Below, piece by piece: positions 16,766 to 24,934 of a stretch of 34,031 nt of DNA; the first letter of the stretch is position 1, and each line of letters starts with the position of its first letter. The stretch comes from a virus (lineage: Duplodnaviria; Caudoviricetes), in IMG/VR virus record IMGVR_UViG_3300025653_000125, positions 1-34,031 of that record. One strand, 5' to 3'. The notes below the pieces were generated by a model. The model did no database searches and had not been told where the DNA came from. It saw only the letters and a program-made list of their open reading frames with translations. The position numbers and the translations under genes are program-made.

Positions 16766-19700
16766 ATGGCTGGCATAGTACTGGGTCGCAAAACTCCATT
16801 TGCCCCCGAACTTCCCGAACAAAAAACTGAGGACCTTGGTGACAAGCTGACTGAGGGTGGAATCCTTGCGGACACTCAGTTCGGTAAAGGCTTAGATGCA
16901 GGTATCGACCAAACCCAAGGTCTTGGCGGTGCGCTCAAAGCCACGGTCGGTAGCGCTATTGGCAATGAGGAGTGGGTCGATTCAGGTCTAGCTTACTACC
17001 GCAAGAAAATGCAGGACGCTGCCAACGTAGGCGCAAATGTCACCTCCGTAGAAGAGATAGATTCATTCGGTGATTTCACTGATTGGGCTGGCTACACCCT
17101 CGGAACGCTGGTGCCTGATGTGGTTGGTGGCGGCGTTGCAGGTGTTGCGGCAAAAGCTGGTACTAAAAAACTGCTAAAAAACAAGCTCGAGCAGGAAGCT
17201 GATACGATCGGCAAGCGTCTTGCAGAAAAGGTCACTCAAAAGAACTACGACGCTGCTGCCGGATTTGTTGGTTATAGCGCAGCACAGAACACCGCCTCTA
17301 ACTTTGCTGAAATCTATGAAGAAACCGGTCTTGAGGCTCCCGGCAAAGCCCTAGCTGTTGGTGTGGCTCAGGGAGCGCTCGATCGTTTTGGCGTTCCACA
17401 GCGAGCATTCAAGCGAATGTTTGGATCGGACGGATTAGAGCAGTTTAACGACGACATTGCTGAGCGAGTCTTTATGAGTAAGGACTACGTCTTGGCGGTG
17501 GGTCGTGAGGCGGTCAAAGCTGCTGGCGTAGAAGGCTTCACAGAATTTACTCAGGAGTTTTTGGGCAGAGCCGCAGTGGCATGGGCAGAAGAAAACCTGC
17601 CTGAAGACCAGCAGCGTGAGTTCTTGGAGATCGTCGCAGATGAACGATCCAAGTCCATGTACATCAACTCCTTTGCATCCGGTGTTCTTGCCGGAACTGC
17701 TGGCGGTGCCGCAATACAGGCGACAAAGGTGGGCGGCAGACGCCCAGACCAGCCCGGTCCCGAGGGTCCCGAACCGTTTAGCGAAGAGGCTGAGCAAGCT
17801 CGCATCAATCGTATGCCTGAGGCTCGTCGTAAAGTTATTGAGCTGACCCAAGCAGAGACAACTATCGACCCGGAGGGGGGTCCGACACCAGAGCCGACGC
17901 CCGGTACGGTCGCGCTTACCCCTGAGGAAACAACAATACAGCCCGGTCAGGACCCCAGCATGGACATTTTGCTGGAGGGGTACGACAGACCGCCGGCAGA
18001 GCCGATGCTGTACTGGGGCAACATGCCTGTGCCGCTACAAAAGCAGCTCATTGTTGACGGCATGGAAGACGATATAGCTACAGAGGCTGACCTGAGAGCA
18101 GCGGCTGAAAAGCTCGAGGGCACAGAAAGATCTTCTGCGCTGAACGCTATCAATGCGTCGGTAAATCGTGGCACTCGTCGTGCAGTACCACTGGAAACGC
18201 AGCAAACAGATGAGTTCGGCGGCGAGATCTTTATGGTCAGCACACCAGAAACTCTAAGCCAAAAAATCGAGTCGTTTAACGATGCTGCTGCGCGTGGACC
18301 AATTCCCAAAACAACGGGTGAAGGAGAGTTTGCATCTCAAGGCGTTACTGAAGCGGACATAAACTTCAATATCACACCGTCTCGGGGTCCTGTGTCCATG
18401 CTCACCGAGGACGGCAGAACAGTTCAACTGCCCGGTCTCACCGACTTTGTAGGAAGCACCGACCCAACAGCCAACCCAGCCCTCGAGGAAGCGGCGTCTA
18501 TCTACCTTGACCTCGCAATGCGTGGCGTACCAAAAGAGTTTCGTGATCTTGTGAAAGGCACTCACGTCCTTTCAACTGAGGACATACCTCACGACGCAGA
18601 GGCGGCTTTCCTCGACAGGTCTAGTGTGATCGGCATGAGGTTCGATCACTTGCTAGAGGGAGCAGATGACGAGCAGAGAGCTCGCCGCAATCGCTTCAAT
18701 ACAGCGCATGAAGTAATGCATGCAGCTGACTTTAGAAACGGCTACTCATCTGCTATCGATCACTTCAAAATGAAGGTAGAAGACATCGACGGCGATGGTC
18801 AGCCTGATATCTCTATGGGTAGAGCCATCGAGGAAATCTTTGACCTATGGGAGTCTGACGCAGAAGGAGCTGGCTTCTTTTCGTACCCACTAGACGCCCT
18901 TTACGACAACATCGCTAAGCAAAATGGCGACCCAGAGAAGATCCAAGGTGTACTCGATGGCGCACGAGAGGAGCTGTTCGCTCAACTTGGTGCAGCCTAC
19001 GTGGCTAACGAGGGATCGATACAGAAGAGTTTGCCGTTTGGGCATAGTATAATCGAGGACATATTCGCTAACCCTGTTCCGGCAGAGCAGTTAGTAACTA
19101 ACGACGTAAGAGGTTTGTATGGGAATCAGGAAGCTAACCAAGAAACCCCTGTCTCCGAAGGTGCAGGAGTACCTCGAGACGTTCGGACACCTGCCGAGTC
19201 AGGAGGCGTTCAAGTTCAAGACGAAGGAGGAGCTGGAGGAACTGGCGGACCTAGCCTTGTCGAGGAACAAGCCAGTGAAAGCGTGGGCGGAACGCCCGAA
19301 CCTGAAGCTGGGGACAGTGCAGGACAAGTATTACCAGTAGAGCGCACAGAGCTCAGGCAAAGCTTACTTCAAAGCATTCCTGAAGGCGGAATATCCTCAG
19401 CTCAACTGTCCGAACAGGTAGGACAGGAAGAAGCAAACTTCCGTGATCTTCTAGATCAGATGGAGGAAGACGGAGAAATTACCTCCGAGCTAACAGCTGA
19501 CGGCGAGCTTTACCTGCCCGCATCCTCCGAGCCTAAGTTCATCAAGAAAGGCGCGGAGTATTTGCTACAGAACTCCCGGGGCAAGACCACTGGAAAAGCA
19601 TCCGTAACAAAGGCGATCAATCCCAAGAATGCAGCCAAGCAAATACCTGCTCTTCAGGCGCTGAGCGATCGACACGACGATCCGCTGTCCTCACCTGCCG

Positions 19701-22700
19701 CATGGCTGAGGTTCGAAAGAGATCTTACGGGAAGTAACACTACGATCCGACCGCCTCACGGACTGATCTCTCTGTACAACGACATAGATACGTGGGTCGC
19801 TACTCATTCGCGCCTGTCTGATCAACAAGTACAGGCAGCTAGGGAGGGGCTAGAAACCGCTCGAGAGATGGGCGAGGTCTATGCCTCAGGGGAAGCAACG
19901 CCCGACATAACCGGAAAGCTCATGCTTTGGGGCATCATGTCGAGAATGCTCACCGCCTCGGCTCAAGAGGCTGGCTTTGTTGATCTGCTAACAAAAATGC
20001 CCGGGGCAAAAGATGACCCCGCAGGTGACATCATTCAGAAAACGCTTGATGGCACCATGACAGAGCAGGACGTGAAGAGCTGGGAGAAGGCAGTAAAACG
20101 CCTCATACCAGAGGGTTCGTTCGGTCGATCTGGCACAAGCAATGCTAACGATTGGGCAAAGTTTATGCTCAAGATGTCTGAGCGCACTGAAGACGGCAGA
20201 AGCAGGCTGGAGGAGCTGCACGATCTTGTAGGTAATCGATCAATCTCCACCGTAGATGTTCGTCGTCAGTTCCAGGGGATGATCAACAACCCCGGAATCG
20301 GCAACAAAGTATTCTCGTTCTTAATGTTAATGACCGGGCGTGACGACGTAGTCATCCTCGACCGGATTCAGCTCAACTCAATGTGGGATGCGGGGCGTTA
20401 CGGCAAGCTTATCTACGACGACATTGCAGATGAGTTCGACAAGGGGCACGGTCTGGCTCGATACGAAGCGCTTGAGAAATCTCTCAACCAGCGCATCAAA
20501 GAGCTTTATCGGAGGCTTGGTCGAGAAGATGAAGGCTCAGTAGGCAGATACCATTGGGAGAGCTGGGTTCTGAACTCAGGTCAGGTCGTTGCACACCCAA
20601 CGATGAAGGGGCTGTTAGACGACGCAAGAGGTGCAGACACACCTTATGCCGACATGGGTGCGCCTGAAGGCAAGATGAACCTGTTTAGGTACGGCGCGAT
20701 CTACGCCCGAGACCCTGACGGCAACCCGTATTTCCTGTATGCTGATCAGTCAAACAAGCCGTACCGTTTCACCCCAAAAAAGTTCTCCGAATTCTTGGAT
20801 CAAGTCAAACTTCGGAAGCGCAACATTATCCCGAAAGGGTTCAAGGTAAGTGAATATGACAAAGGATTCCCTTGGTACGAAGCCGATGGCGTCAACAGAG
20901 ACAACCTCGATGCCCTCATCCGCGAGTACGCAGAAAGAGAAGCAGTTGAAAGCGACTATGCTGTTGAAGAAACTGATGTCCAAGACGACGCCGATGTCGG
21001 CGGACAGCCCGAGGCAGAACGCCCAAGATACATAAAGGGCAAGCGAACACCGGACAATAGTCCACCCCACGAAGTCACATTCAACCTCGATGACGAGTAC
21101 CTTGTAGATAGGGACCTTTCGCAGCGCCTAAACAGGCTAATGCCAAAGAGCTTTAGCAAGGCTCTTGTCGATCGTTACGGAAGACTCAAAGAGCTCGAGG
21201 ATCGTCTCGCTGCCAGTGTCGGTATGGACCGCATGCCGGCATCAGTATCTGCTTACGACGCAGAAAACCTTATGCACTCCAAGGTGCAGAATCAGATCGA
21301 AGAATTTGAGAACGACTACATCAAGCCAATAGCGGCAATGATGAAGGCGGCAGATCTCGATGGTGAACAGGTAGGTCTGTACTTGCTGGCTAAGCATGCC
21401 CCGGAACGTAACAGGGTCATTGCCGAACGCGAGCAAGCCATGAGGGCGGAGCAAATAGATCGCCTCAACAAAGCACTTGAGGACTCAATGGGCGCTCTCG
21501 ATCGCCCGGTCGAATCTATCACTGAGCGACTAGACAAGCTTGAGAACGAGCCTCTCCGATTCCAAGACACCGGTTCGGGCATGACCGACTCTGAGGCAGA
21601 GTCTGTGATCGCCACGGCAAAGCTCGAAGACAAGTATGACGCGCTCGAGGAGATCTCAAGCAAGGTCTACGAGATGCTTTCTGACATGCGTCAGAACATG
21701 GTTGACAAGGGCTTGCTGGATGACGAGACAAAAGAGGACTGGCAAGACACGTATGAATTCTATGTGCCGCTGAAGGGCTTTGCCGCCCTAGAGCAAGACG
21801 GCGACATGGTTGCGGGTACTGGGGCGAAAGGCTTCAGCGTTACAGGCAAGGAGTCCTTTAAGGCGAAGGGTCGTGTAACCATGCCAGCCAATCCACTGCT
21901 AAATGCGTTTGTGGACGGCGAGACAAAAATTATTAGGGCGGAAAAAAATGTAATCGCCCAACGTCTACTGAAGATGCTCAGCAAGTTTAAGTCTGACCAG
22001 TGGAGCGTTTACCCGCCAACGCAGTACCCGTTCCAAACGCCGCCAGACGATATTAGCGTGCGGAAGAGCAAAAGCCAGATGGCTTCTGAGATGCGCCCCG
22101 ATGACGACAAGGTTCACCGATACATACAGGTAAAGCGCAACGGGCAGGACCACTTCATTGAGATTCGCGATAAGGAGCTGAACAGAAACCTGCAGGCTGG
22201 CAGTGTGGGCATATTCAATTCCGAGGTTGAGTCGTTCAACCAAATCATGACCTTTATGCGGGAATTCCAGAACTTCCGTCGCGACATGATCATCAACTAC
22301 AACCCAAGCTGGGGACTGGTTAACCCAATCAGAGACGTTCAAACGGGACTCGCTTTCATTCTTGCCGAGCAAGACTCTCGTGCCGGCAGGCTGAAAGACA
22401 AGGACCTGATCTGGGAGGTGGTAAAAGGATGGGGACCATCGTGGAAGGCGTTGTGGCGTGATGCTCGGGGCAATGAGCCCAAGACAGATGAAGCTAAAGA
22501 GCTGGCGCAGTTTGTTAAGGACTATAAAGACGACGGCGCTCCTACCGGCATTGCTTACAGCAAAAGCATTGATGAGCAAGCCCGCCGCATTGAGACGCTG
22601 ATAAAGCGAGGAAAAATTAGAGAAGCGTTTGCTTATTTAGGCAAGGTTGTTGAGGACTTCAATCAGGTAATGGAGAACGTTACCCGGCTGTCCACTTATA

Positions 22701-23956
22701 TTGCCGCACGAAAATCTGGGGTCGAGAGAACAACTGCTGCGACCGTGGCTAAAGACCTGACAGTTAACTTCAATCGCAAAGGGGAGCTCAGCTCCGCAAC
22801 AGACACCTTCTACCTATTCTTCAACGCTGCAATACAGGGCAACGTGAATACTGCCGAGGCTGTATTGAAGTCAGGCAGGGATGGCGAGAAGCTTACCAAG
22901 GCTCGAATGGTCGCCGCGGGGCTTGTGCTTGCCGGGTTTGCAAGGACGTTGATAAACATCTGGATGTCTGGTGAGGATGAGGATGGAGAGTCTACCTACC
23001 TCGACTACAACGAGTATGCCCTAAAATCAGGAATGCTATTCCGTATCAGTGATGAGCAAGGCTTTGCATTGCCTAAGGCGTATGGATGGGGCTTCTACGA
23101 TGACGTAGGTCGTTTGGGCGCTGAGCTGGCTATGGACCTCAAAAGTCCAGATCAGGTCGGTGTGGATCTGCTGACATCTATGGATCGGCACTTTAACCCC
23201 CAGGGTATACACGCCGTCTCAGATGACCGAGATGCGTCAGAGTCAGTAATGCTGAAGCTAGGCTTCCTCGCCGGACCGGACGTTACTGACTTCGCTCTAG
23301 AGCAAGCTGCAAATATCAACTACTTCGGGGAGAACATTACGATCCCCCAGAACCCGTTCTTGGTGCAGAAGCCCAAGTCACAAAAGACCCGCAGGCGCAC
23401 GTCTGATTGGATTGAGAGCACAACTAAAACCATTGCCGAGCTGAGTGGTGGTGACGACTACATCCCGGGCAGCGTTGAGGTCAACCCAGATAGAGTTCAG
23501 CACGGATTAGATTTCCTGCTCGGAGGTGTTGGTAGGTTCTTCAATGATGCAGCCGACACTGCGACCAAGTCTCTGAATGACAGACCCGGAGACCTGAAGG
23601 CTGACGACGTACCAATCATCCGCACGTTCTTCCCTAGAGTCAGTCAATACAAGGATCGAGTTACTTATTACGACTCTCGCAACGAGTGGCTCCAGTATCG
23701 AACGCAGATCAGAGACGCTGACGCAGAGGAAAGCAAGACACTTGTAGAGCGTTACGGCAGAGAGCTGTACCAGTTCGAGACCTTCCACAGTCAAGCAGAG
23801 AAGCAGCTCAGAAAACTGTCCAAGCAGAAGAAGCTACTCGAGGATAACGGTGTCATCGATCCAATGGTGCGATATGAAAAGCTGGACGAGATCACGGCTC
23901 AACAGGAGCTGATCTTCGACCGGTACAACAAGAAGTGGAACGAAGTTAAACCCTAA
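16766..23956 (+). CDS. Large polyvalent ejection protein (zincin-like metallopeptidase, HhH-glycosylase-like domain, C-terminal LPD38-like region)
   Basis: 2396 aa. Gly/Ala-rich N-terminal helices with 'EGFTEFTQE'. HEVMH at 18707-18721 with downstream ELFAQ at 18971-18985. 'PGIGNKVFSF...DVVILDRIQ' at ~20291-20371. C-terminal 'YVPLKG', 'NPIRDVQT', 'DLTVNFNRKG...FYLFFNAAIQG', 'LPKAYGWG'. Confidence 0.85.
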   Translation: MAGIVLGRKTPFAPELPEQKTEDLGDKLTEGGILADTQFGKGLDAGIDQTQGLGGALKATVGSAIGNEEWVDSGLAYYRKKMQDAANVGANVTSVEEIDSFGDFTDWAGYTLGTLVPDVVGGGVAGVAAKAGTKKLLKNKLEQEADTIGKRLAEKVTQKNYDAAAGFVGYSAAQNTASNFAEIYEETGLEAPGKALAVGVAQGALDRFGVPQRAFKRMFGSDGLEQFNDDIAERVFMSKDYVLAVGREAVKAAGVEGFTEFTQEFLGRAAVAWAEENLPEDQQREFLEIVADERSKSMYINSFASGVLAGTAGGAAIQATKVGGRRPDQPGPEGPEPFSEEAEQARINRMPEARRKVIELTQAETTIDPEGGPTPEPTPGTVALTPEETTIQPGQDPSMDILLEGYDRPPAEPMLYWGNMPVPLQKQLIVDGMEDDIATEADLRAAAEKLEGTERSSALNAINASVNRGTRRAVPLETQQTDEFGGEIFMVSTPETLSQKIESFNDAAARGPIPKTTGEGEFASQGVTEADINFNITPSRGPVSMLTEDGRTVQLPGLTDFVGSTDPTANPALEEAASIYLDLAMRGVPKEFRDLVKGTHVLSTEDIPHDAEAAFLDRSSVIGMRFDHLLEGADDEQRARRNRFNTAHEVMHAADFRNGYSSAIDHFKMKVEDIDGDGQPDISMGRAIEEIFDLWESDAEGAGFFSYPLDALYDNIAKQNGDPEKIQGVLDGAREELFAQLGAAYVANEGSIQKSLPFGHSIIEDIFANPVPAEQLVTNDVRGLYGNQEANQETPVSEGAGVPRDVRTPAESGGVQVQDEGGAGGTGGPSLVEEQASESVGGTPEPEAGDSAGQVLPVERTELRQSLLQSIPEGGISSAQLSEQVGQEEANFRDLLDQMEEDGEITSELTADGELYLPASSEPKFIKKGAEYLLQNSRGKTTGKASVTKAINPKNAAKQIPALQALSDRHDDPLSSPAAWLRFERDLTGSNTTIRPPHGLISLYNDIDTWVATHSRLSDQQVQAAREGLETAREMGEVYASGEATPDITGKLMLWGIMSRMLTASAQEAGFVDLLTKMPGAKDDPAGDIIQKTLDGTMTEQDVKSWEKAVKRLIPEGSFGRSGTSNANDWAKFMLKMSERTEDGRSRLEELHDLVGNRSISTVDVRRQFQGMINNPGIGNKVFSFLMLMTGRDDVVILDRIQLNSMWDAGRYGKLIYDDIADEFDKGHGLARYEALEKSLNQRIKELYRRLGREDEGSVGRYHWESWVLNSGQVVAHPTMKGLLDDARGADTPYADMGAPEGKMNLFRYGAIYARDPDGNPYFLYADQSNKPYRFTPKKFSEFLDQVKLRKRNIIPKGFKVSEYDKGFPWYEADGVNRDNLDALIREYAEREAVESDYAVEETDVQDDADVGGQPEAERPRYIKGKRTPDNSPPHEVTFNLDDEYLVDRDLSQRLNRLMPKSFSKALVDRYGRLKELEDRLAASVGMDRMPASVSAYDAENLMHSKVQNQIEEFENDYIKPIAAMMKAADLDGEQVGLYLLAKHAPERNRVIAEREQAMRAEQIDRLNKALEDSMGALDRPVESITERLDKLENEPLRFQDTGSGMTDSEAESVIATAKLEDKYDALEEISSKVYEMLSDMRQNMVDKGLLDDETKEDWQDTYEFYVPLKGFAALEQDGDMVAGTGAKGFSVTGKESFKAKGRVTMPANPLLNAFVDGETKIIRAEKNVIAQRLLKMLSKFKSDQWSVYPPTQYPFQTPPDDISVRKSKSQMASEMRPDDDKVHRYIQVKRNGQDHFIEIRDKELNRNLQAGSVGIFNSEVESFNQIMTFMREFQNFRRDMIINYNPSWGLVNPIRDVQTGLAFILAEQDSRAGRLKDKDLIWEVVKGWGPSWKALWRDARGNEPKTDEAKELAQFVKDYKDDGAPTGIAYSKSIDEQARRIETLIKRGKIREAFAYLGKVVEDFNQVMENVTRLSTYIAARKSGVERTTAATVAKDLTVNFNRKGELSSATDTFYLFFNAAIQGNVNTAEAVLKSGRDGEKLTKARMVAAGLVLAGFARTLINIWMSGEDEDGESTYLDYNEYALKSGMLFRISDEQGFALPKAYGWGFYDDVGRLGAELAMDLKSPDQVGVDLLTSMDRHFNPQGIHAVSDDRDASESVMLKLGFLAGPDVTDFALEQAANINYFGENITIPQNPFLVQKPKSQKTRRRTSDWIESTTKTIAELSGGDDYIPGSVEVNPDRVQHGLDFLLGGVGRFFNDAADTATKSLNDRPGDLKADDVPIIRTFFPRVSQYKDRVTYYDSRNEWLQYRTQIRDADAEESKTLVERYGRELYQFETFHSQAEKQLRKLSKQKKLLEDNGVIDPMVRYEKLDEITAQQELIFDRYNKKWNEVKP
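19119..19340 (+). CDS. Candidate overprinted small gene nested in the polyvalent protein gene (73 aa)
   Basis: +1 frame; RBS-like TAAGAGGT at 19107-19114; protein-like amphipathic helices, while the host frame here is a low-complexity G/E/P linker. Confidence 0.6.
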   Translation: MGIRKLTKKPLSPKVQEYLETFGHLPSQEAFKFKTKEELEELADLALSRNKPVKAWAERPNLKLGTVQDKYYQ

Positions 23957-24833: not shown

Positions 24834-24866
24834 TGATGAAAAAAGACAGAAATAACAAGGGGTTCC

Positions 24867-24914
24867 ACCTTGCCAAGGTTGAGGTCGCGAGTTCGAATCT
24901 CGTTTCCCGCTCCA
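24867..24914 (+). mobile_element. attP core: 3' 48 nt of tRNA-Gly(GCC)
   Basis: ACCTTGCCAAGGTTGAGGTCGCGAGTTCGAATCTCGTTTCCCGCTCCA contains the anticodon loop, T-arm, 3' acceptor strand and CCA. The 5' half is absent. It lies ~100 nt downstream of the integrase stop. Confidence 0.92.
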
Positions 24915-24934
24915 ATTTCTGTTTCGTCAACAGC

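Follow-up and report, generated by a model that had tools for sequence, protein, structure and literature searches.

A conserved 73-residue +1-frame gene nested within a phage polyvalent protein gene and its possible role as inhibitor of the upstream predicted zinc peptidase

Lambda Rz/Rz1, phiX174 D/E and comS in srfA are known cases of a same-strand, out-of-frame gene lying wholly inside another. Gene callers usually suppress such fully nested open reading frames (ORFs), so families of this kind are easily missed. The nested gene described here differs from these cases in having stand-alone relatives and marking the edge of a mobile cassette, and several unrelated nested families follow different domains. 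In the ImmA/ImmR and IrrE/DdrO switches the partner is an HTH repressor cut by the peptidase. The protein described here matches no HTH or repressor family in Pfam or PHROGs.

Among phage proteins, the polyvalent proteins of Iyer et al. 2017 are comparable to the present one in being giant and multidomain, with a zincin metallopeptidase (MPTase), LPD38 and swappable domains; according to the main text of that work, MPTase is their commonest domain, and self-processing or autoproteolysis is favoured as its main role (PMC5512222). The locus described here differs in that its effector-like domains can carry a hidden +1-frame partner gene; the same main text gives 0 matches for 'overlap', 'immunity protein' and 'linker' (PMC5512222). 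In the MuF polymorphic toxins, as the available texts describe them, a phage-delivered metallopeptidase is likewise followed by a small gene (PMC5576092, PMC3482391), and the slot directly behind the MuF toxin is the proposed immunity-gene position (Jamet et al., PMC5576092), although the table of Zhang et al. 2012 gives no immunity family for Tox-MPTase1-5 (PMC3482391). Unlike those toxins, the present protein has no MuF domain, its peptidase is internal and its partner lies wholly inside the effector gene. The Listeria Mtz-Tim pair, a phage-derived metalloprotease (metzincin) with a small TIMP-like partner, is also similar but, in the available text, secreted, encoded by separate genes, drawn from other families and subject to cleavage of the partner (PMC8235301). 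A literature search restricted mostly to papers outside subscription and to main texts brought up no description of such nested genes in the linkers of polyvalent proteins; supplements may list stand-alone families. The phage toxin-immunity theme would appear here in an unusual architecture, with the partner nested in the effector's own gene.

The window, by which we mean the whole analysed stretch of 34,031 nucleotides, is a partial temperate podophage-like record with integrase, primase-helicase, tail and internal virion genes. A plus-strand gene of 2396 codons (16766-23956) closes the virion gene block, following the tail and internal-virion genes. Its product is a large multidomain protein with a zincin MPTase and an LPD38 domain (22994-23617, plus strand; Pfam, E 1.2e-16), phrog_14770, phrog_616 and phrog_10691 match its C-terminal part, and its domain content differs among relatives, all of which fits a phage polyvalent protein. 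From the position of the gene, we propose that the protein may be packaged and injected at infection. MuF (PF04233) was not found in the giant protein of the window and is present in L039 and L043. Beside the integrase, positions 24866-24915 match RNA contigs at the 3' half of tRNAs of cellular origin and are likely an attachment-site core; ARAGORN found no whole tRNA there.

The MPTase domain occupies 18452-19078 on the plus strand (residues 563-771 of 2396, internal and not C-terminal as in MuF toxins), with HExxH, read as HEVMH, at 18707-18721 and a third-ligand glutamate at 18971. The two histidines, the glutamate between them and the later glutamate are invariant in all 20 aligned peptidase rows, which share 19-92% identity, and HExxH is present in 41 of 42 loci, the remaining one being cut by a contig end. 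The AlphaFold2 (AF2) model of the domain (pLDDT 92) has the three-stranded sheet and flanking helices of a zincin fold, and VIA-align places it beside zincin folds of the lethal-factor/PPEP type (Z 9.1-11.3, rmsd 3.3-5.0, 139-169 aligned residues); Foldseek matches were weak (E 0.2-1), as were sequence matches. The domain upstream of the nested gene is accordingly modelled as a zincin agreeing with the MPTase outlined in the main text of Iyer et al. 2017 (PMC5512222), and proteolysis is its predicted activity.

The nested gene, a predicted partner or inhibitor of this peptidase, lies at 19119-19340 on the plus strand, encodes 73 residues from an ATG, and is read in the +1 frame relative to the giant gene. 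The segment just ahead of it (19107-19114, plus strand) holds an in-frame TAA at 19107 and a Shine-Dalgarno-like GAGG at 19110-19113, 5 nt 5' of the ATG. The initial annotation had described the +1-frame ORF, its RBS-like site, a TATAAT at 19048-19053 lacking a good -35 and a start some 130 nt past ELFAQ, and these features are present as described, with ELFAQ at 18971-18985, 134 nt ahead of the ATG. Its impression of a helical protein agrees with an AF2 model that predicts five short helices (pLDDT 82), and its view of the main frame as a G/E/P/S-type linker agrees in composition, the property computed here, with 58 of 74 host-frame residues being G, E, P, S, Q, A, D or T. In the window alone the ORF is not remarkable, as the +1 frame stays open by chance in 27% of versions in which the host protein is re-coded synonymously (computed on L061, whose nested-gene DNA is identical to that of the window), single-locus openness has a median p of 0.21 by the same procedure, and the giant gene has two more alternative-frame plus-strand ORFs of at least 60 residues. 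Other alternative-frame ORFs of this giant gene, at 17616, 20388, 21636 and 22458, were set aside, as they match only the identical L024 or act as shadows. Since the window by itself is not beyond chance, proof of the gene rests on its relatives.

A search for loci of the small protein returned 19, and in all 19 the ORF follows an HExxH...ExFAQ domain and is read in the +1 frame of a giant gene; after more scans all 22 distinct strong matches were nested behind the peptidase. In L034 the nested gene follows the peptidase only after an insertion of about 115 residues (L034:2089-2460), still in the +1 frame and with its own RBS. When loci were retrieved by the peptidase only, a homologue stood in the same frame and place, as a small ORF of <150 residues directly behind the peptidase, in 38 of 38 viral loci among the matches listed, 25 of which had not been fetched via the small ORF; the patterns were drawn from one MPTase clade and applied to about 40 of the 64 parts of the collection, so this count does not speak for all MPTases. 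Among the matches listed, the +1 frame is thus preserved in the giant genes of relatives (38/38), a check that had been proposed beforehand. Across 42 distinct loci, the start codon lies 19-22 codons ahead of the core motif in every case (21 codons in 36), an in-frame stop stands 0-39 codons upstream of the start in every case, and 40 have an RBS core of at least 4 nt.

Selection acts in the frame of the nested gene, the subject of another check proposed beforehand. When 21 sequences were compared over 66 codons, with L049 excluded, identity was higher in the nested than in the host frame for each of the 210 pairs (mean 52% against 37%), and the 11 closest pairs all have nested pN<pS and host pN>pS, where pN and pS are uncorrected proportions and the sequence pairs are not independent. 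Between the window and L006, the nested frame carries 8 silent and 5 non-silent changes and the host frame 2 silent and 11 non-silent. As controls, none of the 42 loci has an open third frame, the +1 frame within the peptidase is open in 2 of 41, and seven shadow ORFs give the reverse of the nested-gene selection pattern. Mean identity is 43% for the nested protein and 38% for the peptidase, and their distances correlate at 0.82, which is not taken as co-evolution because the two genes are physically linked. Three computable outcomes that could have spoken against the gene, namely stops in the +1 frame, a lack of stand-alone homologues and a lack of own-frame selection, did not occur. Judged from sequence comparison, the 73-residue ORF is almost certainly a real, conserved gene, and likely one that is separately translated.

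The TATAAT at 19048-19053 (plus strand), in the last peptidase helix, is the candidate -10 box of an internal promoter, and similar boxes stand about 43-65 nt ahead of the start in many relatives; a promoter scan of the window returned no full sigma-70 promoter and no good -35 for the nested gene. A tyrosine occurs in the last peptidase helix of 38 of 42 loci. Whenever N, T or D follows this tyrosine, the codon of that following residue has T as its last base, in all 26 cases (11.9 expected; 9 clusters at 60% identity), which completes a -10-like hexamer some 43-58 nt ahead of the start, against 128 of 430 for other such dipeptides. The final T of the box is absent in 12 of 38 loci, and the window itself is without the helix tyrosine, its TATAAT sitting 5 nt further on in another frame. 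Within single loci, neither the promoter nor the RBS scores reach significance when compared with synonymous re-codings (median p 0.24-0.31). In each of two marine metatranscriptome runs, from two studies, a single contig of low depth covers part of the nested gene (19100-19250 in one, 19162-19340 in the other), a weak hint of transcription only, because the runs were found using this region. Runs X15-X17 have low-depth contigs scattered across the region; X18 and X19 have no other contig on the giant gene. This missing cover is no proof, and the runs had been picked with 18300-19600.

The linker encoded by the same bases in the host frame (19118-19339, plus strand; residues 785-858) contains 3 large hydrophobics among its 74 residues and has pN>pS in close pairs. 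From the first base past the nested stop, relatives diverge or carry an insertion (junction 19341-19375), as seen in the L001/L002 alignment, in the X8 joint, which carries 303 other letters in one population, and in the loose ends of X14 and X20 at 19341. Because close relatives diverge from 19341 onward, the peptidase and the small gene behave as one module. The junction at 19341, one base after the stop, supports the view of a cassette in the initial annotation; immunity as a function is still a proposal. That annotation had also called the gene overprinted, and here the reverse order is probable, since the small gene seems to predate the linker, which has the look of a read-through product. 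The linker frame is probably the newer one, as losing the peptidase stop and later host-frame stops would turn a MuF layout into a nested one, and stand-alone MuF-linked relatives together with weak host-frame constraint point to the small gene coming first, although the tree is unrooted. Under this scheme, an ordinary pair of peptidase with stop codon and partner, as found behind MuF genes, would have lost the stop; the effector frame would then run on across the partner gene, whose bases it would translate into a low-complexity linker, so that complete cassettes of effector and partner could be chained in one polypeptide.

The stand-alone relatives in question are small ORFs directly behind genes for MuF with a C-terminal HExxH peptidase, present in 8 viral loci (4 distinct DNA sequences, one family). 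They encode 54-63 residues, their ATG overlaps the end of the MuF gene, which ends in an HExxH...ExFA peptidase, and they are read in the +1 frame about 38 codons past the third-ligand glutamate, the nested copies standing at 32-50 with one outlier at 159. HHalign relates the nested and MuF-linked families remotely (94%, E 1.3e-7). This single family was found via a motif that biases its score; against motif-kept shuffles, 8 of 10 members are beaten by at most 3 of 200, and two are not clearly above them (12 and 14 of 200). The corresponding peptidases align only over the last two helices (78%). A likeness to small proteins downstream of phage metallopeptidase toxins had been noted in the initial annotation, and remote relatives occupy that slot behind MuF-peptidases; together with the free copies described below, they also supply the stand-alone homologues that had been sought.

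Profile searching for the small protein yielded 63 clusters at E <=0.001, and P0020 and P0061 from that search are treated as probable chance matches; one cluster member comes from a Pseudomonadales MAG. The ESM Atlas returned only unnamed clusters, all <0.9. For the predicted fold, BFVD gave no match (best E 0.39) and PDB a best Z of 2.7, which does not make it a new fold. Among annotated phage records there is no match to the nested protein or to either peptidase, the one upstream of it and that of the MuF genes, and 8 such records at E 3-8 against the MuF partner were set aside as noise. In GTDB genomes, alignment A7 found nothing; alignment A8 found L099, a nested copy on a phage-like contig in a Flavobacteriales MAG, which is not host evidence, and the weak match L100, which was rejected.

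The 26 metagenome loci comprise 6 nested copies, 4 relics and 16 free copies. In the relics the small ORF is intact, the host frame carries stops, the upstream peptidase-helix region is retained, and DNA identity to intact phage genes is 83-90%. Free-standing copies share the start of the nested gene, and two of the 16 are interrupted (L106, L126). Six free copies have pN<pS in 15 of 15 pairs; one pair of free copies differs by 2 non-silent and 0 silent changes. Genes for tmRNA, tRNA-Ser, tRNA-Arg, a 5'-3' exonuclease, CobW and an amidohydrolase are among the neighbours of the escaped copies, and from these the contigs appear to be chromosomal or cellular islands. In a quick, unrooted tree of 77 columns, free and fused copies fall inside several nested clades, and well-supported branches require a minimum of 5 switches between the nested and the non-nested state. 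As read from these comparisons, the small gene has repeatedly escaped into cellular-looking islands and is under purifying selection. Many escaped copies have gained hydrophobic or membrane tails, as judged by eye, or T5orf172 domains.

Several individual architectures were recorded among these proteins. One island near tRNA-Ser holds two different free copies of unrelated clades (L113:120-1046 and L113:5001-5459); the first of these proteins matches P0032, itself a tandem repeat of the small domain. In L102:410-1876, P0047 and P0062 the small domain is fused to T5orf172 (GIY-YIG-like), at either end, by Pfam match, and P0065 is a T5orf172-like fusion by eye. Several membrane-tailed fusions have a common lysine-rich helix after the small domain.

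Clustering of 213 alternative-frame ORFs from 31 giant genes recovers the family of the 73-residue gene, with 31 members. It also yields additional +1 families, and each of these follows a domain of its own. Family F2 consists of +1 ORFs of 63-86 residues with ATG starts behind DUF7178 (L010:5952, L013:7519, L019:7774, L034:3963, L036:3774, L124:7050), and its members mostly have an RBS-like site (6 loci). Family F3 comprises nested ORFs of 61-70 residues behind a different, unnamed domain (L021:4392, L099:6693, L117:6711, L118:6768, L015:8392), with nested pN<pS in 6 of 6 pairs; close pairs of F2 and F3 alike have nested pN<pS and a less conserved host frame. F4-F6 are candidate families of two loci each (L017:2627 and L018:8095; L011:7390 and L022:7942; L026:8023 and L114:7194), with constraint in both frames. 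In the window, a second effector-like domain follows at 19541-21025 (plus strand), with copies of 54-63% identity in 14 other loci; this region (19541-21035) has a motif reminiscent of a helix-hairpin-helix DNA glycosylase, and there was no database match. Neither the nested families nor the second domain match Pfam or PHROGs. A +1-frame remnant of 25 codons at 20958-21035 (plus strand) matches the start of a longer nested ORF, which stands behind the second domain in 5 of 8 relatives examined (L065, L073, L076, L078, L080). At least two further nested families behind other effector-like domains suggest a general cassette design.

On this body of sequence evidence, the reading we prefer, with a rough probability of 0.62, is that the nested gene encodes an inhibitor (immunity protein) of the upstream predicted zinc peptidase, its other frame having become linker. 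Its frame, position, start site, own-frame selection, strict linkage to the peptidase and the cassette edge at its stop favour this; the self-processing role set out in the main text of Iyer et al. (PMC5512222) argues against it, as immunity would then not be needed. In the proposed mechanism, the giant protein would be packaged and injected and its peptidase would cut a host or phage target. The small protein would be expressed by means of a promoter and an RBS located within the last helix of the peptidase, and may bind and block injected or newly made peptidase in a producing cell or, given that the phage has an integrase, in a lysogen. Cells capturing the small gene would gain orphan immunity.

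Strict linkage and selection would fit equally well if the small protein were a substrate or regulatory partner, made in the lysogen, cleaved or titrated by incoming or induced peptidase, and acting as a switch for lysogeny, superinfection or the timing of self-processing. There is precedent for this in a phage-derived metzincin that cleaves an inhibitor-like neighbour, as the available text reports (PMC8235301), and in HExxH peptidase/repressor switches such as IrrE-DdrO; the small protein is also basic (14 K/R and 10 D/E) and as conserved as the peptidase (43% and 38%). Yet it lacks a match to any HTH or repressor family in Pfam or PHROGs, different small genes follow different non-peptidase domains, and repeated capture without the peptidase, including two copies in one island, suits protection better than a switch, which leaves this role unlikely.

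We are more doubtful still that a real gene is aimed at something other than the peptidase, such as superinfection exclusion, chaperoning of the giant protein or host takeover, and travels with the peptidase only through using a promoter inside it. Free copies that last without a nearby peptidase, many having gained membrane or T5orf172 tails, and relics that retain the upstream helix region agree with such a passenger; the recurrence of the partner-behind-peptidase geometry in unrelated MuF genes and the domain-specific partner families, which suggest cognate pairing, speak against it. That no independent gene exists, the ORF merely shadowing a linker or RNA element that is itself conserved, or being a tail made by +1 frameshifting from the giant frame, is highly improbable: the open frame is unremarkable in a single locus (median p 0.21), and the evidence for the gene consists of sequence and RNA contigs, not translation, but frame-specific selection, the near-fixed start distance and the upstream in-frame stop (each 42/42), free-standing copies that use the same start and a confident fold model (pLDDT 82) all oppose it.

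If the inhibitor reading is true, the same DNA would serve as spacer in the giant protein and as antidote, an arrangement that would explain both how toxic domains are chained in one injected polypeptide while their antidotes are kept and the odd G/E/Q/D-rich make-up of the linkers. As to whether MPTases act in self-processing or in attack on host proteins, a dedicated conserved partner favours a trans-acting effector. A survey of the +1 frame of linkers would give effector domains of unknown function their partners. A broader and more speculative picture, to which we give somewhat less than even odds, is that polyvalent phage proteins string effector-immunity cassettes together, with each effector followed by a linker whose +1 frame conceals the matching immunity gene in every case. 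The 'disordered linkers' would then contain antitoxins in large number that have escaped annotation. Marine bacteria would repeatedly steal these genes as orphan immunity and would have fused some of them to membrane domains or to the GIY-YIG-like T5orf172 domain; in such fusions the captured domain could sense injected peptidase and trigger defence. The escaped copies suggest one way in which marine bacteria may gain protection against phages.
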